Positions 1 through 49,385 of a DNA stretch of 49,385 nt are shown here, in pieces. The DNA lies in IMG/VR virus record IMGVR_UViG_3300025858_000002. The stretch is one strand, 5' to 3'. The stretch comes from a virus. Both the position numbers and the translations under genes were made by a program. The notes beneath the pieces were generated by a model. It was given only the letters and a program-made list of their open reading frames with translations. It did not search any database and was not told where the DNA came from. Every line of letters starts with the position of its first letter. Position 1 is the first letter of the stretch.

Positions 1-127
1 AAGTAATAGCTGTTGCTGGTGATTTAGGTGCGATATTTCCACAAGTTGGTGGTGTTTATCCACAAAGTATGTTCTTTAATATGTTCCTTGGGTGTTCAAA
101 TTTAGTAAGTGTTAGAGGTGATATATT
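1..127. repeat. Terminal overlap identical to 49259..49385 (circular closure; unit genome 49,258 bp)
   Basis: First and last 127 nt of the window are identical by direct comparison. One reading frame runs through the junction. Confidence 0.9.
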
Positions 128-1764: not shown

Positions 1765-2009
1765 ATAAAAAAGTCAAAAAACAATCTTATTTTAATAAAT
1801 GCTGGCACGAATTCCTGACTTGGTATAAACCACAATGGGAAAAAGCCTGGGAAGATTTAAAAGACGCTATTATAATGTTATTATCTGCAATTAAGACTTG
1901 GTTCTTATTTGTAGTCACGACATTCGGCGTTGGTGTATGGAAACTTGTAGTTAAACCTATCTTTGGTAGAATGTGGAATAAGTTAATTGCTTGGATCAAG
2001 AGAATATAA
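1761..2009 (+). CDS. Hypothetical membrane protein
   Basis: ATGA start/stop overlap with the upstream gene. One central transmembrane segment (LLSAIKTWFLFVVTTFGVGVW). Confidence 0.5.
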   Translation: MNKKVKKQSYFNKCWHEFLTWYKPQWEKAWEDLKDAIIMLLSAIKTWFLFVVTTFGVGVWKLVVKPIFGRMWNKLIAWIKRI

Positions 2010-2014
2010 GTTAC

Positions 2015-2072
2015 GGGGGCTGGGTTCATCATTCTTTTCCTTCCTTTTCCTCTAAAGAGGAAGCCCCCACCT
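2015..2072 (+). ncRNA. tRNA-like minihelix RNA (element Z): GGGGGCU/AGCCCCC terminal stem followed by ACCU
   Basis: A 7-bp perfect helix joins 2015-2021 and 2062-2068. Hairpin UCCUC-UAAA-GAGGA (2048-2061) abuts its 3' strand. The interior has a CU-rich tract. The element ends 14 nt before ATG 2086, just ahead of SD AAGGA. Confidence 0.45.
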
Positions 2073-2085
2073 ATAAGGATAAAAT

Positions 2086-2433
2086 ATGAAAAAATACATT
2101 GTAGTTCTTTCTGTATTAGCTTTATTCGGTTGTGCTAAGACTAGTGCTACTGATAATGCAACAAATGCTGCTACATCGCAAATAAACAACATTCATAATA
2201 CCGTTAATAACATTCAGAATGGGCTAAGTAAAGAATGTAAGACTGTGAATGTTATGAATCAATTAAAGACTATTAACAATCAAATTGATACATTAAAAAA
2301 GCAGGTACAAACTATACCTGCTGTTTGTAGTGCTGAAAAAGACACCTTAAAGGCTGATAATAAAAAGTTAATAGCTTATTTGGTAGTATCTTTAGCAGCT
2401 TGTGCTTTCTTGGCTTTCCGTAGAGCATCATAA
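2086..2433 (+). CDS. Lipoprotein with C-terminal transmembrane helix (unimolecular-spanin-like)
   Basis: Lipobox LALFGC at residues 12-17. C-terminal hydrophobic helix LIAYLVVSLAACAFLAF. SD AAGGA upstream. Confidence 0.5.
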   Translation: MKKYIVVLSVLALFGCAKTSATDNATNAATSQINNIHNTVNNIQNGLSKECKTVNVMNQLKTINNQIDTLKKQVQTIPAVCSAEKDTLKADNKKLIAYLVVSLAACAFLAFRRAS

Positions 2434-3104
2434 GAGTGAATAATACCAGTTGTATGTTTGATATATAATTCTTCTCTTGCTGCAACTGCTTCTTCTAAAG
2501 TCTTACAACTCTTAATATGATGAACACCACCAACTGTTATCTGGGCTATCCATCTATTTGTTTGCGTTATATAGGTAACACCCCTATAACCAGACTTATT
2601 GTTCTTGAATAATTTATCATTTCTAAGATTATTTACTTGGGCGTGTTGAAAAACACCAGCTCTTTGTAAGTGTTCTTTAATACCGATTCTATCAATTTCT
2701 TTTATAAGATTGCCTGGGTGTGAACAACTACAGGATTGCCATCTACCTGCTATTACTGAGGCTGCAGAAGCTAGCGTAATATTGCCACACTCACAAGTAC
2801 ATAAAAACTTAACTGTTTTATTAACATAAGTAACATTATTAACTGTTAACTTATTGAATTTTTTACCTGTGTATTTAAGGTATTTAGCCATTGCTTCTTT
2901 TATATGTTTATTTTTTACACATTTTGGGCAGCTCTTAGTAGCACCATTAACAACAGAATTCTTCCTTGCCACAATATATTCGCCACAATCGCATCTAAAC
3001 AGCCAGTATTGGTGGCTTTGTCTTGAATCGTGATTATGATGATCAAAGCGAATAGCTGTTAAGTTATTATAGTGTTTTCCTGTTATATCTATATTTACTG
3101 GCAT
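2376..3104 (-). CDS. AP2-domain DNA-binding protein with two Cys-rich repeats
   Basis: SGYRGVTYITQTNRWIAQITVGGVHHIKSCKTLEEAVAAREE is AP2-like. Two repeats have the form NxLT...(W)LF.C.C.CG......V..G...SC.C. Confidence 0.6.
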   Translation of the reverse strand: MPVNIDITGKHYNNLTAIRFDHHNHDSRQSHQYWLFRCDCGEYIVARKNSVVNGATKSCPKCVKNKHIKEAMAKYLKYTGKKFNKLTVNNVTYVNKTVKFLCTCECGNITLASAASVIAGRWQSCSCSHPGNLIKEIDRIGIKEHLQRAGVFQHAQVNNLRNDKLFKNNKSGYRGVTYITQTNRWIAQITVGGVHHIKSCKTLEEAVAAREELYIKHTTGIIHSYDALRKAKKAQAAKDTTK

Positions 3105-3115
3105 TCTTCATCCTT

Positions 3116-3322
3116 TTAGTCGCCCAATAAGCTATCAATGTATTCCTGTTGGTATCTAATCGAGTCATTGGCTTGAGATAGATTAGAAACACATTCTGCT
3201 AATTGTTTGTTTTTACTTAACTGTTTATCAATAGACGAATCTATAATAAAGGAGTTAATGATTGTAAAAAAACATCCTACAAGTGATACTAATAGGATTG
3301 TTGCAATGTTGTCTTTAAGCAT
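3116..3322 (-). CDS. Membrane-anchored coiled-coil protein (i-spanin- or holin-like)
   Basis: N-terminal transmembrane segment ILLVSLVGCFFTIINSFII followed by a polar helix. It overlaps the 3' end of the lysozyme gene. Confidence 0.4.
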   Translation of the reverse strand: MLKDNIATILLVSLVGCFFTIINSFIIDSSIDKQLSKNKQLAECVSNLSQANDSIRYQQEYIDSLLGD

Positions 3323-3807
3323 AAGTTATATTCCTCTTTCCTTCTTTTTATTATTCCATCATTCTTTTTATCTTTAACCTTTCTATAAGTTAAAATTTTA
3401 GAACAATTCATACTACCTTGTTTGTTAATAAATACTTTGGCTTTATTACCACCAAGATTGTATTCTAGTGATGCATATACGGCGTATTGTGCCATATTTA
3501 ACGTTTTAGGCACCTTATTCCAAACATTGGCGTGTAAGTAAGCTACCATACGCTTTTCTGCTTGTACGCGGCTTATATTGCGTTCTCCTGGTATTTCTGT
3601 TTTACCATTTGGTCCATAAGGTAGAATCCAGCCATAAGATCCTGTTCCGTATCCTATTGACCATCTGCCGCCTGGGCAGAGGTATGAATATGATCTATAA
3701 TCCTCTAAGGATTTTATAAATTCTACAGCAAATTTTTGTTTCGCTGAAATTGGTGGCTCTGGGGAAGGTTCCCTTATAGCACATCCTAATGCTAGGATGC
3801 CTAACAA
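3289..3807 (-). CDS. Lysozyme-family endolysin (GH24-like)
   Basis: FIKSLEDYRSYSYLCPGGRWSIGYGTG resembles the E...Y.D..G..TIGYG lysozyme core. The N-terminus LGILALGCA looks like a signal or lipobox. No in-frame ATG, so a TTG start at 3807 is inferred. Confidence 0.6.
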   Translation of the reverse strand: MLGILALGCAIREPSPEPPISAKQKFAVEFIKSLEDYRSYSYLCPGGRWSIGYGTGSYGWILPYGPNGKTEIPGERNISRVQAEKRMVAYLHANVWNKVPKTLNMAQYAVYASLEYNLGGNKAKVFINKQGSMNCSKILTYRKVKDKKNDGIIKRRKEEYNLCLKTTLQQSY

Positions 3808-4255: not shown

Positions 4256-4602
4256 TATTCATTTCCTTCTAACAATCTTTTTAATGTTTTCCACTTATTA
4301 CTTGTGAATAGATAATTTAAAGTATTGTATTCATTATCTAACTTTATATGGAGTTCATTCCAAAAAACTATCGTTTCATAGAAGTTTTCCCGTGTGTAAT
4401 CCAAAAACTCTATTGATTGTTCCTCAGTAATAAGCTTTACTTTTTCCTGCCAAGCTAAGAATTGTATATCATACCCTAATTGGTCTTCTAGTTGTTCTAA
4501 ACTAGTTTCACAACAATACCTAGCAAAATGTACAATTTCTCGACGTTTATAAAATAACTCAGTTATTTCAGAAATATCGATTATACATTCTTTATCAATC
4601 AT
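4255..4602 (-). CDS. Hypothetical protein
   Basis: ORF track. Overlaps both neighbours within the same-strand operon. Confidence 0.5.
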   Translation of the reverse strand: MIDKECIIDISEITELFYKRREIVHFARYCCETSLEQLEDQLGYDIQFLAWQEKVKLITEEQSIEFLDYTRENFYETIVFWNELHIKLDNEYNTLNYLFTSNKWKTLKRLLEGNE

Positions 4603-4982
4603 AGTATATTATCTTTAATCTTTTGTAGTTGGTCTTCAAAATACTCAGCTCTTGTAATACCCCGCGTTATACACAAAGATAATAAGTTTCTATTAGCTAG
4701 CTGTCTTAATTCGTCCATCAGCGTTTCTGATACTGCTGGTTTCAATTTACCGGCGTGTATTGCCGCGTGACATTCTGCACAAACAGGATATAAGTTAGGC
4801 AAATAGAATCTTGTTAAAGGATTAGATCGAGGAATTATATGATGTATATGTTCAGCTGGTCTTACTATATATCTTTCTGCACAAGATCTACAAAGTCTAT
4901 TGTGACGTAACTGAGGATATAGTTTATCACACCGATCATAGACTTTTTGTTCGTCATTTACGGCTAATCTTTTATATCGCAT
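4599..4982 (-). CDS. HNH endonuclease
   Basis: CRSC...HIHHIIPRSN...CAECHAAIH is a classic HNH layout. Confidence 0.75.
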   Translation of the reverse strand: MRYKRLAVNDEQKVYDRCDKLYPQLRHNRLCRSCAERYIVRPAEHIHHIIPRSNPLTRFYLPNLYPVCAECHAAIHAGKLKPAVSETLMDELRQLANRNLLSLCITRGITRAEYFEDQLQKIKDNIL

Positions 4983-4998
4983 AATAATCTCTTAAATT

Positions 4999-5079
4999 TG
5001 GTGGCGGTGTGATTCAGAGGAGAGAGAAAGTAGGAAGGGAGTCCGAATCATTTATAATTGTAGTCAAACAATCACCGCC
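4999..5079 (-). ncRNA. tRNA-like minihelix RNA (element A): GGCGGUG/CACCGCC stem followed by ACCA
   Basis: On the minus strand a 7-bp perfect helix joins 5079-5073 and 5009-5003, followed by A-CCA (5002-4999). A 6-bp helix UGAUUC/GAAUCA (5050-5045 with 5015-5010) abuts it and closes a 29-nt CU-rich loop. There is no anticodon arm. Confidence 0.5.
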
Positions 5080-5086
5080 GTAAACC

Positions 5087-5431
5087 TTAGAATGGAATAT
5101 CATCACCAAAATTTGTATTAGAACGAGCTATATCCGCACCTTCTGGCGAGGTAAAGCTTTTGAGTTCAAAATTAGTAAAATATTTTCCTGTTGAACTTTG
5201 GGATGTTGTAATGTTAACAGTTGCTTTTACCCTATCACCTGCTCTAAGCATTCTTGCCGTTTCTTCCAAGAATTTAGGTACTCTACAAGTTAATACTGCT
5301 TCTTTTGGACCAAACTTAGTTTCTGATTTGTGGCAAATAATTAACTCACGGAACATAAAGTTACCGTTTGATGTCTGACGTTCTGTTTGTGTATTTTTTA
5401 ATACTTCAAATGTTTCTGTTACTGTTAGCAT
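5087..5431 (-). CDS. ssb: Single-stranded DNA-binding protein
   Basis: OB-fold-sized protein ending in the acidic SSB tip GDDIPF. Confidence 0.7.
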   Translation of the reverse strand: MLTVTETFEVLKNTQTERQTSNGNFMFRELIICHKSETKFGPKEAVLTCRVPKFLEETARMLRAGDRVKATVNITTSQSSTGKYFTNFELKSFTSPEGADIARSNTNFGDDIPF

Positions 5432-7137: not shown

Positions 7138-7309
7138 TTCTTATCCTTTTATTTAATTTGCACTTTTGGTTTAATTAGACCTTTACTATGAATGGTACAA
7201 ACCATATCAACTGGGGTGCAATATTAGATCTCTTGACTCTTACGAGCATTAAACCCAATTAGTCCGGAAAGTGCGAACGAACTTCAAAGGAGGCATACAC
7301 CCCAACCTC
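7138..7309 (-). ncRNA. Structured intergenic RNA (element E)
   Basis: Long-range helix UGGGGUG/CACCCCA joins 7304-7298 and 7218-7212. GNRA hairpin CUC-GUAA-GAG. Hairpin AUGGU-UUGU-ACCAU. No ORF. Confidence 0.3.
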
Positions 7310-7777
7310 TTAGTTGCCATTTACGGCACGTTCAAACATAACCTTTGTAGCTTCTTCTTTCGTTAACAGTTCTTTATCGTGAACAACCAATGATAAAGCT
7401 CCGTTATCCAGACGGATTACTTCATAGATTCTTTTTTCTGGTTCTTTCTTTTCTACTCTGTACGTTGGTAAAGTAGTTAGTTCAGTTGGTGCTTCAATAG
7501 GTTTAACTTCCTTTGCCCCTTCTATAATGAATTTTGGTTCAAACAATTTAGAAGAGAAAACCGGCAATGTTGGGTATGATCTGTTTCTATAATTTGAAAT
7601 GTTAGTATTTATAGCAGCTTTGATATCGCTAAAAGCCTTTTCTGGTACACCAGACTTAGCAGTACACATACCCTCTATAACCAATCTGTTTATTGTTCCA
7701 GCAGGGGTAAAAGGCAATTCTAACCAGTAGAAAAACTTGGTACCTCTGATGTGTTTGTAGTTTACAATTATTTTCAT
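7310..7777 (-). CDS. Hypothetical protein
   Basis: ORF track. No motif recognised. Confidence 0.5.
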   Translation of the reverse strand: MKIIVNYKHIRGTKFFYWLELPFTPAGTINRLVIEGMCTAKSGVPEKAFSDIKAAINTNISNYRNRSYPTLPVFSSKLFEPKFIIEGAKEVKPIEAPTELTTLPTYRVEKKEPEKRIYEVIRLDNGALSLVVHDKELLTKEEATKVMFERAVNGN

Positions 7778-10208: not shown

Positions 10209-10220
10209 ATTTAATCCTTT

Positions 10221-10410
10221 TGGTGAGGCTGACCAGCAACTTGGATTTCAATGGTCATTTAACGGTAGCGACACCGGGGGTATGAACCCCGTCTAGCCAG
10301 CGGACCGGAAGCCCAGTCCACACCTTTTCCGCACCTCAAAACTGGCGGGGACCGATAACCTTGCGGGGTCACTAAGACACTCCTAGGATGGTCAATCTAA
10401 ATTCGTCCCC
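10221..10410 (-). ncRNA. GC-rich structured RNA (elements B2/B3)
   Basis: A sampled 60-nt line is about 65% GC, against about 32% in flanking genes. No ORF. GGGGAC/GUCCCC helix followed by G-CCA. T-arm-like hairpin CGGGG-UUCAUAC-CCCCG. The 3' end reads GCCUC-ACCA just before SD AAAGGA. Confidence 0.4.
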
Positions 10411-10415
10411 ATAAC

Positions 10416-10461
10416 TGGTGGGCAGGATACAGACGATTTCTACCTGTATAGCAACTGCCCA
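10416..10461 (-). ncRNA. tRNA-Tyr acceptor-mimic minihelix (element B1)
   Basis: Minus strand reads GGGCAG-UUGCU-AUACAG-GUAGAAAUCGU-CUGUAU-C-CUGCCC-ACCA. Plus-strand 12-mer ctggtgggcagg (10415-10426) is identical to the tRNA-Tyr 3' end (14077-14088). Confidence 0.5.
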
Positions 10462-14077: not shown

Positions 14078-14162
14078 TGGTGGGCAGGGCTGGATTTGAA
14101 CCAACGAACTCTGAGAGAACAGATTTACAGTCTGCCTGCTTTAACCTCTTGCATACCTACCC
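14078..14162 (-). tRNA. tRNA-Tyr (anticodon GUA), class II, CCA encoded
   Basis: Hand-folded cloverleaf. Acceptor GGGUAGG/CCUGCCC. D stem UGC/GCA with a GG loop. Anticodon arm GCAGA-CUGUAAA-UCUGU. 13-nt variable arm. T arm GUUGG-UUCAAAU-CCAGC. Ends A-CCA. Confidence 0.9.
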
Positions 14163-14168
14163 ATAATT

Positions 14169-14280
14169 TGGTGGGGATTTCGTAAGGCGTATATCTCTCT
14201 TTCAAGATACTTTATATTGCTTACCCTTTATTTCAAGGCACGATGTCATTATTCATCACTCACGCCACCCTATTATCCCC
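14169..14280 (-). ncRNA. tRNA-like RNA (element C), 6 nt upstream of tRNA-Tyr
   Basis: Terminal helix GGGGAU/AUCCCC joins 14280-14275 and 14178-14173, then A-CCA (14172-14169). Internal hairpins CCUU-GAAAUA-AAGG and AUCU-UGAAAGAG-AGAU. No cloverleaf. Confidence 0.4.
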
Positions 14281-15018: not shown

Positions 15019-15145
15019 TGGTGGGGCGGAAGCCGCGATTCTTAGATAGCGATTGCACTTCTGCTATGACTAGAACGTTTGTTTTATTATGCAAAACTAG
15101 CGAGTCGCCTTATTCCTGTCAATATCCTTGCGGGATATAAGCCCC
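15019..15145 (-). ncRNA. tRNA-like RNA (element D) with internal copy of the downstream SD
   Basis: Terminal helix GGGGC/GCCCC joins 15145-15141 and 15027-15023, then A-CCA. Hairpin AUAUCC-CGCAA-GGAUAU. The 8-mer atatcctt occurs at both 15122-15129 (internal) and 15007-15014 (SD of the next ORF). Confidence 0.4.
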
Positions 15146-15387: not shown

Positions 15388-15843
15388 TTAGTCTTCCAAT
15401 GCTGATTCTGGATCTTCTTCCAACGCTTTAATCTGAGCTACCAAAGCAGAGATACCTGCTTTTTGTGAACCCTTAGCAATTTTCAGAACTTCACCAACAT
15501 CTTTTGCACCTTTGACTTCGTCCATACGTTCGTGCAAGGCAGACATCAAACGTTTGGTTTTTGCAGCAACGGCTTTGAAGATATTATAGTTTTTAATATC
15601 AACTTTACCGATGGTCAATGGGATATCAGAAATCTGAGTACCACCATTTTCTGCTTTAATATACTCATATTCTGCATAAACTTCTTTCACTTTGAAATAA
15701 GCCAGCTTGCTATGAGCCCAGACAGAAAAGATATCGCCCTTAGCAACTTCTTTTTCACTTGTTGCATAAAAACGAAATTCTTTTGAATCCGGTTCGTCTT
15801 TGGTATGAGATACCAAGACACCTTTTAAGATTAAGACTTTCAT
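15388..15843 (-). CDS. Hypothetical protein (first gene downstream of the ribozyme)
   Basis: ORF track. SD AAGGAG upstream. Visibly higher GC than its neighbours. Confidence 0.55.
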   Translation of the reverse strand: MKVLILKGVLVSHTKDEPDSKEFRFYATSEKEVAKGDIFSVWAHSKLAYFKVKEVYAEYEYIKAENGGTQISDIPLTIGKVDIKNYNIFKAVAAKTKRLMSALHERMDEVKGAKDVGEVLKIAKGSQKAGISALVAQIKALEEDPESALED

Positions 15844-15866
15844 TCATTTCTCCTTTTTTATGATTA

Positions 15867-15934
15867 GACTAGTCTCATCAGTAGCATAGGAGTCACCTAT
15901 ACTAGACCGGCATTATACCGGTTTCGACAAATGA
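15867..15934 (-). ncRNA. Type II hammerhead self-cleaving ribozyme
   Basis: Minus strand reads UUUGUC-GAAA-CCGG(UAUAAUG)CCGG-UC^UAGUAUAGG(UGACU)CCUAUGCUA-CUGAUGA-GAC-UAGUC. All core nucleotides are present (CUGAUGA, G10.1-C11.1, GAAA, A15.1-U16.1, C17). Stem I is 9 bp and stem III 5 bp, and stem II is open. Confidence 0.85.
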
Positions 15935-27105: not shown

Positions 27106-27368
27106 TTTTTTACATTCTTTGATAAGAAGCTTAAAGTTTCTTTTGCATCATCTTCTGCAATTTGAATTCTGTTGTCATATTCAAGTTCAAAACCCATCAA
27201 TATTAGTTCGTGATTCTTTTCATCACCCATAATCTCTCTTACTTTGTTAGCATTCTTTTCATCGCCAGCTTCAATGAATGCAGCAAGTAAAGGTGTGTAT
27301 CTATGGCGTGCTTCAGTTTCAGACATAAGGTTGTCTTGTATCAAAGATAATATTTTTTCGTTTTTCAT
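27102..27368 (-). CDS. Small helical protein with two E..H motifs (ferritin-like?)
   Basis: ETEARH and DEKNH. Start taken at the TAATG junction (27368). The ORF-track alternative is 27389. Confidence 0.35.
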   Translation of the reverse strand: MKNEKILSLIQDNLMSETEARHRYTPLLAAFIEAGDEKNANKVREIMGDEKNHELILMGFELEYDNRIQIAEDDAKETLSFLSKNVKK

Positions 27369-27715
27369 TAGTCTAACCTTTTTTTCCACTTTGTGAATTT
27401 TTGTTCGATAACTACGTTGATATTAGATATTTTAGCAGGAAGTGCCAAAAAATCAATACTATCCCTAAATTCCATAAACTCTTTCTTATCGTAAAGGTAA
27501 GTCTTCGGTGAGTTTATTTGTTGTTCTAAGAACTTAACTCCTTCCTTTTGATATAAAAAAAGAAGATACAATTCTGCATCTTCCTTAGTATCAAAATAGT
27601 AGCAAGTCCAACTTGAACCACTTAAGGCGTAATTCTTAATCTCTTGTGTAATAAGGTATTTATTAAAAACTAACCCATCTTTAACTATAACCTTACAAGG
27701 TCCAGATATTTCCAT
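27368..27715 (-). CDS. Hypothetical protein
   Basis: ORF track. SD GGAGGAAA upstream. Confidence 0.5.
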   Translation of the reverse strand: MEISGPCKVIVKDGLVFNKYLITQEIKNYALSGSSWTCYYFDTKEDAELYLLFLYQKEGVKFLEQQINSPKTYLYDKKEFMEFRDSIDFLALPAKISNINVVIEQKFTKWKKRLD

Positions 27716-27734
27716 TGGTTTCCTCCATAAACAG

Positions 27735-27764
27735 ATTTTATGCGAATATCTGATATAAAGTCAA
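27735..27764 (-). promoter_or_regulatory. Candidate promoter of the leftward 27715..26591 island
   Basis: Minus strand: TTGACT, an 18-nt spacer, then TAAAAT. Confidence 0.5.
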
Positions 27765-27778
27765 GAAATTTTATAATC

Positions 27779-27807
27779 TTGCAATAATTAAATATATCTT
27801 CTATAAT
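27779..27807 (+). promoter_or_regulatory. Candidate promoter of the portal/head operon
   Basis: TTGCAA, a 17-nt spacer, then TATAAT, 20 nt before ATG 27827. Confidence 0.6.
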
Positions 27808-27826
27808 TTCAGATAAGAGGTTGTAA

Positions 27827-29413
27827 ATGTCAAAAACTCAACACAAGAAAGTCAATTCTGCAAAATTGAATAATTCTCTTAGTGGACTCGTTGCCGGTAT
27901 AGTACCTATTGGTGGTGCAGCTGGTGGGCGTACAGGTTCATTATCTCCTAATTCAATAAATTCTACAGCCACCCTGCAAATGCAAGTCAGGGGTGAGTTT
28001 GTTACATTAAATTATCAATTACTTTCATTTCTTTACCAACAGTTTGGTGTTGTTCAGGCATTGATTGAAGTTCCAGTATTAGATGCTTTTAGAGGTGGCG
28101 TTAAGTTTTCAGCTTTTGAAAAGAAAGTTTTGCCACCTATGAAAAAGAAAAAGAATTTATGGAGTTTCTTCAAAAATGAAGAAAAACAACAACAAAAAGA
28201 TCCAGCTAAAGAGCAATTTGATATTCAAGAAGAAATGCTTGAAAGACGTGCAGAGTGGGAACGCGAACAAGTTAAAAAAGATGAAGAACTTAAAAAAGCT
28301 GATGATTCGTATTTAAGGAACGAAATATCAAAAGAAGAACTTAGACGTATCCAAATCTACGTAAGAAGAGAACAAATATGGATTAAACTGCAACAAGCTC
28401 TTTATTGGAAGAGATTATATGGTGGTGGCGGAATTGTAGTATTAGATGGTAGGAATCCTAAGACTGAACTGAAATTAGAAGATATTAACGAAGATACTGA
28501 TCTTGAGTTTTATGTAGCAGATAACTGGGAACTTTCATCTTCAGATACAAATGCTTTAGCCTTATCAAATATTGATTGGATGTCAGATACACCATTTACT
28601 TTGAAAGGACACGCAATTCATAAATCCCGTGTAATTATACTTAAAGGCAAAGAATTTCCATCTTTCTACAGAGCTGTAGGACGTGGTTGGGGGATGTCCA
28701 TATTGGAACCTTTAATCAGAACTTTGAATAAAAGCATCAAAAACGAAAATGTTATATTTGAATTGCTAGATGAAGCTAAAACTGATGTATTTCAATTGTC
28801 AGGTTTAAACGATTCATTACAGGATGATGATGCGACAAAAGCTATTACACAACGTGTAAGTTTAGCTAATTATTTGAAAAATTATTTAAAAGCGTTATTA
28901 TTAGACTCAGAAGACAAGTACACACAGAAACAATTATCATTTGGTGGTTTAGCTGATCTTAAGATTGATACCAGAGTAGATTTAGCTGCTGATGCTAGAA
29001 TTGTTATGAACAAGTTGTATGGTACATCTCCAGCTGGGTTTAATTCTGGAGAAGCTGATAGAGAAACATATGCAGACGCTGTTGAGGCTGAAATCAGAGT
29101 ACCTGCTGAAAATCCAGCAATTAGATTGTTGGAAATCTGTGGTAGAAAGGTTTTGGGTAAAACATTGGACTTTGAGATTGAATGGGAAAATCTAATAAAG
29201 ACCAGTGCATATGATACAGAAAAAATGAAAACATTGAAATTGGCTAATCTTAACGAAGCATCAATGTTTGGTAGAATAACAAACAAAGAATGGCAAGAAG
29301 CTGTTAACAAATATGATTTGCTTGGATTAGAAGTTTCCTATAAAGAGAAATTTGCAGCAGATCCTATGGTTAAACAGGTGTTTAAACCAGGCTTTGGCGG
29401 TGGAGGTAAATAA
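27827..29413 (+). CDS. Portal protein
   Basis: 528 aa. First gene of the head operon, ahead of the protease/scaffold and capsid genes. Confidence 0.7.
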   Translation: MSKTQHKKVNSAKLNNSLSGLVAGIVPIGGAAGGRTGSLSPNSINSTATLQMQVRGEFVTLNYQLLSFLYQQFGVVQALIEVPVLDAFRGGVKFSAFEKKVLPPMKKKKNLWSFFKNEEKQQQKDPAKEQFDIQEEMLERRAEWEREQVKKDEELKKADDSYLRNEISKEELRRIQIYVRREQIWIKLQQALYWKRLYGGGGIVVLDGRNPKTELKLEDINEDTDLEFYVADNWELSSSDTNALALSNIDWMSDTPFTLKGHAIHKSRVIILKGKEFPSFYRAVGRGWGMSILEPLIRTLNKSIKNENVIFELLDEAKTDVFQLSGLNDSLQDDDATKAITQRVSLANYLKNYLKALLLDSEDKYTQKQLSFGGLADLKIDTRVDLAADARIVMNKLYGTSPAGFNSGEADRETYADAVEAEIRVPAENPAIRLLEICGRKVLGKTLDFEIEWENLIKTSAYDTEKMKTLKLANLNEASMFGRITNKEWQEAVNKYDLLGLEVSYKEKFAADPMVKQVFKPGFGGGGK

Positions 29414-48894: not shown

Positions 48895-49385
48895 ATGACA
48901 ACTGCAATTTCTCAAATTATGTATGAAAACGGACATAAGATCCCAACTTTTTGTGAAGCTGGGCTTAAAACCAATGCATATGAGAATGGACATAAAGTAT
49001 TTCCAGATGAAACACTTGATTGTTTTCAATTGACGATTAAAGATACTGAACAATTTTCAGTTGCAATATCAGCATCAGGTGATTTTACTATCGATTGGGG
49101 CGATGGAATAAGCGATACTATCAACAAGACAAATACTACAAATACTGCATATACTCACGATTATACTAGTCGTGGTAATTATTACGTAAAAATTCGTGGC
49201 TTAGCAACAGGTTATAATACTTCTAATTTCCCTTGTTTAGGATTTCCTAATAGGACTGAAGTAATAGCTGTTGCTGGTGATTTAGGTGCGATATTTCCAC
49301 AAGTTGGTGGTGTTTATCCACAAAGTATGTTCTTTAATATGTTCCTTGGGTGTTCAAATTTAGTAAGTGTTAGAGGTGATATATT
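48895..49385 (+). CDS. DUF285/BspA-like repeat protein, 5' part (open at the window end; continues at 128..875)
   Basis: ATG 48895 with no stop before the window end, so it is absent from the ORF track. DFTIDWGDGISDT...YTHDYTSRGNYYVKIRG looks like a PKD-like beta-sandwich. Confidence 0.7.
   Translation, partial: MTTAISQIMYENGHKIPTFCEAGLKTNAYENGHKVFPDETLDCFQLTIKDTEQFSVAISASGDFTIDWGDGISDTINKTNTTNTAYTHDYTSRGNYYVKIRGLATGYNTSNFPCLGFPNRTEVIAVAGDLGAIFPQVGGVYPQSMFFNMFLGCSNLVSVRGDI
49259..49385. repeat. Terminal overlap identical to 1..127
   Basis: Direct comparison. Confidence 0.9.

Follow-up and report, generated by a model that had tools for sequence, protein, structure and literature searches.

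What does the short gap between two genes on the minus strand of an uncultured phage genome encode? The window analyzed here is the whole stretch of DNA of IMG/VR record IMGVR_UViG_3300025858_000002 (49,385 nt). In this gap of 104 nt, between the stop codon of an SSB-like (single-stranded DNA-binding protein-like) gene and the start of an HNH endonuclease gene at 4982, lies an 81-nt element (minus strand, window 5079-4999), here termed Element A. The original prediction, made from the letters alone, described it as a minihelix resembling the acceptor and T arms of a tRNA, with a pyrimidine loop instead of a cloverleaf. When its fold, its relatives and its flanks were examined, Element A was found to be a real, conserved, sense-strand RNA module. 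It represents a new RNA family, without an Rfam entry, in a clade of ~50-kb uncultured phages, and the family falls within a known general principle. As to its role, by analogy with known systems we see about even chances that Element A acts as a tRNA-like punctuation signal, cut by host tRNA-maturation enzymes in the phage early transcript.

On the minus strand, GGCGGUG (5079-5073) and CACCGCC (5009-5003) are perfectly complementary, and ACCA (5002-4999; a discriminator-like A plus CCA) follows directly, as had been predicted. This closing helix has seven perfect pairs, and the next inner bases, A and A, form no eighth. The 22 nt behind its 5' strand were said to hold a UUGU/ACAA hairpin, which is present in the computed fold as a 5-bp hairpin (AUUGU/ACAAU, 6-nt loop; 5057..5072) abutting the closing helix. 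A 6-nt A/U linker (5051..5056) leads to a second hairpin (5010..5050), which in the fold stacks directly onto the closing helix at its 3' strand. GAAUCA is indeed contiguous with CACCGCC and pairs with UGAUUC. However, the inner helix in the minimum free energy (MFE) fold has 9 bp (one of them G-U), so that the loop is 23 nt (5019..5041) and not the 29 nt first proposed; it is pyrimidine-rich as stated. This loop, below called the CU loop, is free of G and contains the core UUCCUA(A)CUU and a UCUCUC run. Element A is preceded by a 7-nt leader (GGUUUAC; 5080..5086), U-rich like the leaders of phage tRNAs. It is followed by a 16-nt trailer (4983..4998) that reaches to the HNH ATG and has AAUUU right after CCA; both the trailer and gap lengths agree with the original prediction.

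Folding with ViennaRNA gave an MFE of -22.6 kcal/mol (z = -6.66) for Element A, and none of 200 dinucleotide shuffles was as stable. The opposite (plus) strand folded no better than shuffles (z = -1.7), and this asymmetry favours the sense strand. In a 151-nt context the tail was largely single-stranded, with an unpaired probability of 0.78 for A, C and C and 0.37 for the last A. The predicted fold thus has ACCA directly 3' of a helix and a single-stranded 5' leader, as do minihelix-type substrates of RNase P.

Is the module conserved? Relatives were collected by three routes. The large terminase (TerL) led, at 75% identity, to G001, a 53.5-kb IMG/VR phage of 44.8% GC; HNH protein alignment in metagenomes and IMG/VR gave L112-L117, G002 and G003 (50-55 kb); and a protein search gave L228-L236, whose HNH proteins are 58-64% identical. 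The HNH relatives P0003, P0009 and P0010-P0012 were left out of the junction survey. Gene order is kept in all relatives (ERF/Sak, YqaJ, small open reading frame (ORF), SSB-like, HNH), and their syntenic SSB-like ORFs end in DDIPF, DELPF or similar. Eight lineages, namely the window and seven others, carry the module at this junction. Its start lies 6-10 nt past the stop codon of the SSB-like gene, or 13 nt in the case of G002, and the modules of the relatives fold with z from -2.5 to -6.9.

The members share a GC-rich closing helix of 6-12 bp, which usually starts with G, and an unpaired, G-free, CU-rich loop that is either bare or carried on an inner hairpin. The window has the 7-bp helix, the 5-bp hairpin and then the 9-bp hairpin with the CU loop, and ends in ACCA-AAUUU. 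An 8-bp helix encloses a bare 28-nt CU loop in L228-230 (ACCA-AGUUU), a 6-bp hairpin with CU loop in L231-233 (GCCA-AGAUU) and a 23-nt CU loop in L234 (AUCA). The helix has 11 bp in L236 (32-nt CU loop, UACCU) and 11 bp plus one mismatch in L235 (35-nt CU loop, ACCA-AGUUU). G002/L115 has a 9-bp helix, a CU-rich single strand and then an 8-bp hairpin with CU loop, followed by GCCA. In G001 a 6-bp helix followed by ACCG precedes a separate 7-bp helix followed by ACCA-AGUUC, and the CU loop is carried on a 9-bp hairpin.

Each of the eight closing helices has a sequence of its own, and all are fully paired except for the single mismatch in L235. RCCA (ACCA or GCCA) stands directly after the closing helix in six of the eight lineages, against a chance of <1% per site. 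Given the complete turnover of the adjoining helices, inheritance of RCCA without selection is unlikely. The homologue search with a structure-aware model that had been proposed also gave a result: the covariance model of the Element A inner hairpin recovered the equivalent hairpin of G001 with a score of 26 bits (E 6e-4 over 291 kb). When the two hairpins were aligned by this model (MAFFT misaligned both), all nine pairs were kept, four by compensatory change and one by a change from G-U to G-C. This comparison covers two sequences only, and in slid controls of the alignment just 21-39% of cells paired. The best matches of a single-sequence model built from L228 were the window, L234, L231/232 and G001, all of them weak (E 0.02-0.5), and Element A was misaligned.

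The loop is the best-conserved sequence feature of the family. Its core UUCCUA(A)CUU, with a UCUC run after it, was found in the window, G001, G002, L228, L232, L234 and L236, in a set of lineages of 35-48% GC, and the loop sequence, not composition alone, is under selection. The pyrimidine loop is not filler in place of a cloverleaf.

Element A was also compared with known RNA classes. No Rfam family matched at the gathering threshold or at E <= 10 in the region 4800-5300, including the tRNA family RF00005 and the ribozyme families. ARAGORN called a single tRNA in the window (tRNA-Tyr, 14078-14162) and nothing at Element A in its normal, relaxed, intron, mitochondrial and transfer-messenger RNA (tmRNA) modes; a tRNA was rejected on these two results. 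C4 antisense RNA (RF01695) was dismissed likewise, with no match at E <= 10 and no strong duplex partner in the phage genome. The small self-cleaving ribozymes (hammerhead, twister, pistol, hatchet and hepatitis delta virus-like) gave no Rfam match at E <= 10. An intrinsic terminator was also rejected, as the helix is followed by ACCAAAUUUAAG / ACCAAAUUU with no U run and the terminator/promoter scan called neither a promoter-like nor an intrinsic-terminator-like site at 4983-5086.

A decayed tRNA gene could have left a 7-bp stem and ACCA, since this is what the ends of such a gene would look like, and an inverted repeat could also arise by chance and have no function. We consider both highly improbable. 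Rfam and ARAGORN found no trace of D, anticodon or T arms in the interior, and GAAU lies at the wrong distance from the 3' end for a tRNA. Against chance stand the stability of the fold (z = -6.7) and the covariation across lineages whose proteins are ~50-60% identical.

How much of a tRNA top half is then present? The acceptor-like part of the earlier proposal held up, as a helix started by G and followed by RCCA recurs in the six lineages with differing helix sequences. The T-like half and the 13-bp geometry did not. In the window the helices form a coaxial stack of 7 + 9 = 16 bp capped by the 23-nt CU loop, with no T-loop, where a tRNA top half has a 12-bp stack and a T-loop. The stacking is not conserved either: L228, L234 and L235 have one helix and a large loop with no inner helix, and the inner hairpin of G001 is not stacked on the RCCA helix.

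Features of tRNA genes are also seen around Element A and elsewhere in these genomes. The phages encode CCA in their own tRNA genes. G-rich helices with an RCCA tail are enriched in the window, and all stand between genes on the sense strand. Besides Element A, they occur at minus-strand junctions at 10416-10460, 10343-10410, 14169-14280 (next to tRNA-Tyr) and with a 3' end at 15019-15027; a variant on the plus strand (2015-2072) ends in ACCU. In G002, tRNA-Gly and tRNA-Ile are interleaved with four RCCA-tailed elements (27291-27904, minus strand; L137-L138). Three of these are minihelices and one is a 76-nt tRNA-like element that ARAGORN did not call, and the spacers are AGUUU or AGAUU. One RCCA minihelix lies beside tRNA-Ile in G003.

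The same phage has a further 63-nt element at a different gene junction (G003 7275-7337, equal to L133 4019-4081 on the plus strand), with ACCA 15 nt before an ATG and z = -6.9. Its closing helix has 7 bp as read and 10 bp in the MFE fold, and an abutting UUGU/ACAA hairpin is present as in Element A. A single-stranded CU tract takes the position that the CU-loop hairpin has in Element A. Another CU/CACCA match in G002 (52294-52359) overlaps ORFs and was dropped.

The flanks of tRNAs and minihelices are alike in these phages: leaders of both are U-rich (GUUUAY or AGUUUU) and trailers read A/G-(A)-UUU. The core motif of RNase E cleavage is RN|WUU (PMC5222698), which the AAUUU trailer of Element A fits. 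This motif was found within 8 nt of CCA in 6 of 10 phage tRNAs and in 8 of 14 RCCA elements, Element A included; taking every A, or every CCA, in these genomes gives a background of 9-14%. In tRNA precursors of E. coli, as outlined in PMC2190699, the 5' end is generated by RNase P, and RNase E cuts 1-3 nt after the encoded CCA. Hairpins of acceptor stem and T arm are RNase P substrates (PMC11143913), and so are non-tRNAs with an RCCA tail (PMC12710915).

On the punctuation reading, host RNase P would cut the early transcript at the 5' side of G5079 (5080/5079). The cut of an RNase E-type endonuclease would fall 1-2 nt beyond ACCA, and an exonuclease would trim back to CCA. The recombination/SSB message would thereby be separated from the HNH-to-lysozyme message, with differing fates for the two, and a stable RNA of ~81 nt would be released or left as a protective end structure. 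The location of Element A, at a cistron boundary between two same-strand ORFs, is compatible with such a role, and the terminator and promoter-like site that L116 has at this junction likewise fit a boundary of expression. Cleavage at gene junctions seems to be a habit of this phage, because core motifs of a type II hammerhead ribozyme (GAAA, GUC and CUGAUGA, in this order) stand just upstream of a ribosome-binding site at 15867-15934, in the stretch 15841-15934 (minus strand). At that site Rfam reported no hammerhead and gave a sub-threshold match to freshwater-2 (33.6 bits, gathering 49.9).

Several observations weigh against punctuation. RCCA is missing in L234 (AUCA) and L236 (UACCU), and both keep the CU hairpin, so the CU hairpin is the invariant part and must have a function of its own. 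The ACC of the G001 tail is predicted to be mostly paired with an upstream GGU (unpaired probability ~0.1, compared with 0.78 in the window). Such a GGU is also present upstream in the window and in G002 (GGUUU lies 5' of the RCCA helix in G001 and G002 as well), and the tail could thus belong to an interrupted helix. The 16-bp stack exceeds the 12 bp of a tRNA top half, has no T-loop and is not conserved in geometry, and neither the tRNA model or Rfam (E <= 10) nor any ARAGORN mode recognizes the element. The module is dispensable, as it is absent from this junction in five related lineages (L112, L113, L114, L116 and G003/L117). Finally, the nearest TerL of a cultured phage is <=29% identical, too distant to indicate a host and, with it, a type of RNase P or the presence of RNase E.

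Some of these points suit a plainer explanation, in which the hairpin simply shields a message end from exonucleases, be it the 3' end of SSB or the 5' end of HNH, and RCCA is inherited without a role for tRNA enzymes. The module does stand directly after the stop codon in every lineage, two lineages do without RCCA, and the ACC of the Element A tail may pair, weakly, with the leader GGU. However, RCCA was kept in six of eight lineages while every base of the helix changed, and minihelices that alternate with tRNAs carry this tail and these spacers too. Mere protection would also have no need for a conserved loop of 23-35 nt. We regard a plain stability hairpin as quite unlikely.

Among known systems, the punctuation signal proposed here would work most like RNase P model hairpins and the t-elements of plant mitochondria, and it may resemble C4 RNA; it is a member of none of these. 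The model substrates of bacterial RNase P, built from acceptor stem and T arm (McClain, Guerrier-Takada & Altman 1987, as reviewed in PMC11143913), share with Element A a helix started by G, a single-stranded RCCA at the 3' side and a U-rich 5' leader, and they do not need a cloverleaf. They are synthetic or minimal, with 12 bp and a T-loop, whereas the Element A family has 7 + 9 bp or a single helix of 8-12 bp, a CU loop of 23-35 nt and cleavage that is predicted. The t-elements are incomplete tRNA-like structures between protein-coding regions, at which RNase P and RNase Z were proposed to define mRNA ends in a tRNA-punctuation model (PMC1920247). Those are organellar, with neither an encoded CCA nor a conserved pyrimidine loop, whereas Element A lies in a phage operon and has an encoded CCA and a trailer of RNase E type.

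C4 antisense RNA of phages P1 and P7 is processed by RNase P (Hartmann et al. 1995, as cited in PMC11143913). If Element A is cut as proposed, it would share with C4 and the related P4 CI RNA the release of a phage small RNA from a longer transcript by RNase P. The loops of C4 RNA reportedly pair with a ribosome-binding region. Element A differs from C4 in architecture and in loop sequence, and has no Rfam C4 match at E <= 10, and no complementary target for it was found in the phage. The self-cleaving ribozymes found between phage genes, of which the hammerhead motifs in the same operon are an example, also stand just upstream of a ribosome-binding site and would sever a message of several cistrons. 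A ribozyme core is absent from Element A, as is a match to the Rfam ribozyme families, and its cleavage would depend on host enzymes.

What, then, does the CU loop do? Our leading guess is that it may bind purine-rich, Shine-Dalgarno-like RNA or a pyrimidine-binding host protein. For the first of these, the Rsa RNAs and RNAIII of Staphylococcus are small RNAs (sRNAs) with C-rich loops. Another is 6C of Mycobacterium (PMC6486639). All have pyrimidine-rich unpaired hairpin loops on strong stems, and theirs bind Shine-Dalgarno regions. They are independent transcripts ending in terminators, whereas Element A is part of an operon, carries a terminal RCCA and has a CU loop that is longer and bears a motif of its own.

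A riboregulator of this kind would pair its CU loop with purine-rich ribosome-binding sites of phage or host, or mimic the pyrimidine-rich 3' end of 16S rRNA, with the helix and CCA serving only for its maturation and stability, as in the C4 RNA of P1 and P7. It is compatible with punctuation and adds a function for the loop. Conservation of the loop sequence over lineages of 35-48% GC speaks for it, as do the CCUCC-like cores and the GGAA-rich ribosome-binding sites of the clade (e.g. upstream of HNH in L114-L116), and C-rich loops of Gram-positive sRNAs do bind Shine-Dalgarno regions (PMC6486639). The duplex energies speak mostly against it. The Element A loop pairs with the HNH ribosome-binding site at -5.4 kcal/mol, no better than shuffled loops, and the same was found for G001, G003 and Z; cis masking of the site by Element A was rejected for this reason. 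The corresponding duplex in G002 reached -17.3 kcal/mol, a value attained by 1.7% of shuffled loops, and in no other lineage does cis masking look genuine from base complementarity. No convincing trans target was found in the phage genome, where the best duplex (-21.9) lies inside the terminase gene. There is also no Rfam C4 match, and complementarity to purine-rich ribosome-binding sites comes trivially with any CU tract. A riboregulator is in our estimate fairly unlikely.

In G002 (L137, 17947-18035, minus strand) a loop of CCUUUCC-type repeats was observed, in which ~13 of 15 nt are complementary to the GGAA-rich HNH site 40 nt downstream.

The second possibility, a protein bound to the loop, could make the junction a transcription boundary. 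The loop would then be a site for Rho (or for S1 or a cold-shock protein) that limits read-through into the HNH-lysozyme block until later. Element A is in fact the 40-nt window with the highest C-minus-G count on the sense strand of the minus-strand early operon, with UC and CC runs, and it stands before a lysis gene and a gene that is weakly translated (Shine-Dalgarno AAGAGA). At the same junction L116 has an intrinsic terminator followed by a stretch resembling a promoter (see below). Rho utilization (rut) sites, however, span ~60-80 nt of unstructured, C-rich, G-poor RNA. The C-rich tract here is only 23-35 nt across the family and is enclosed in a hairpin loop (23 nt unpaired in Element A), far below typical Rho loading sites. 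A specific motif and not composition alone is conserved, and the retention of RCCA and the tRNA-like flanks would be left unexplained. Such a boundary is in our estimate quite unlikely.

A broader proposal joins these functions to punctuation. The elements would form a family of phage small RNAs cut from operon transcripts by the host tRNA machinery, the loop being a mimic of the anti-Shine-Dalgarno sequence or 16S 3' end, or a bait for S1, Rho or a cold-shock protein. The whole would switch between the early recombination genes and the HNH/lysis block. By analogy this is conceivable, and we rate it as rather unlikely.

The distribution of the CU motif was surveyed outside the clade. Its pattern gave 65 matches in IMG/VR, and a GC-closed loop between genes was seen only in G001 and in L071. 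In 185,579 bacterial and archaeal genomes the 85 matches were close to chance expectation, and none lay in a hairpin of this kind. L071 (IMGVR_UViG_3300008085_001091, a 5.4-kb contig) has the identical 19-nt CU motif in the loop of an 8-bp GC hairpin (3027-3087, plus strand). This hairpin has the sense orientation and no CCA. It extends from the last codons of a 421-aa ATP-grasp-like ORF into the gap. Downstream of it come a 191-aa ORF and then a portal-like gene. L071 shares no detectable protein similarity with the Element A clade. The 19-mer match by itself is within chance for a collection of this size, and its context makes the match suggestive. A short version of the motif, UACUUCUCUCC, is present in L113 in the 13-nt loop of a terminator-like hairpin (10-bp stem and U run; ~3300-3345, plus strand), two genes downstream of HNH.

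If the punctuation reading is true, some phages punctuate polycistronic messages with stripped-down tRNA look-alikes, borrowing host RNase P and RNase E much as mitochondria do. A class of natural non-tRNA substrates of RNase P would be added, standing beside self-cleaving ribozymes in the same operon, and the recurrence of CCA-tailed hairpins in phage genomes would be accounted for. A compact, portable processing signal for synthetic operons would also be at hand. Whatever becomes of this reading, the CU loop is an RNA motif absent from libraries, and one small transcript could probe it directly.

The genome that carries Element A is ~49.3 kb with 34.6% GC. An identical 127-bp direct repeat at both ends of the window (1-127 and 49259-49385) indicates that it is complete and was circularly assembled (or is terminally redundant). 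The minus strand carries a long operon, between ~23.0 kb and 2.4 kb. The gene downstream of Element A (4599..4982, minus strand, 127 aa) is solidly assigned as HNH by PF01844, PHROG HNH families and the ORF map, in agreement with the original prediction. It is the first of a block whose last gene is a lysozyme (3289-3807), and its weak Shine-Dalgarno sequence lies within the trailer of Element A. The upstream gene (5087..5431, minus strand, 114 aa in the ORF list) had been named SSB, and here the label is putative: its product has no Pfam or PHROG match, and the name draws only on the C-terminal tip DDIPF and on the place after the ERF and YqaJ genes.

DNA searches among cultured phages, near and distant, gave no match to the genome. 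The SSB-like protein had no relatives in IMG/VR and found only itself among 5.8 billion proteins. Ten contigs encode it with the same neighbour proteins, and the single locus that was returned has the same 81-nt element. An exact 23-mer of Element A had no IMG/VR match. A scan with the YqaJ protein singly returned distant GC-rich phages only, and their matches to a helix plus ACCA fall within coding DNA.

Among the junctions without the module, those of L112, L113 and G003/L117 leave hardly any gap, and L114 has two unrelated hairpins. In L116 (~2915-2990, plus strand) the SSB-HNH junction consists of an intrinsic terminator and then a promoter-like stretch containing TTGACA, which suggests that the junction is a regulated boundary of expression.

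Two further non-coding stretches were observed. In the window, the 45-nt ACCA minihelix at 10416-10460 is followed directly by 207 nt of GC-rich non-coding sequence (10209-10415, minus strand; -65 kcal/mol), of which the first 68 nt form a helix ending in GCCA; it has no Rfam match. In L235 a GC-rich non-coding sequence of ~600 nt that folds very strongly (1802-2400, plus strand) lies between the CU/ACCA element and HNH, and the 687-nt stretch that contains it (1719-2405) folds at -235 kcal/mol. The sequence at 1802-2400 includes a tRNA-like T arm and acceptor end (GGUGG-UUCGAUU-CCACC ... ACCCA).

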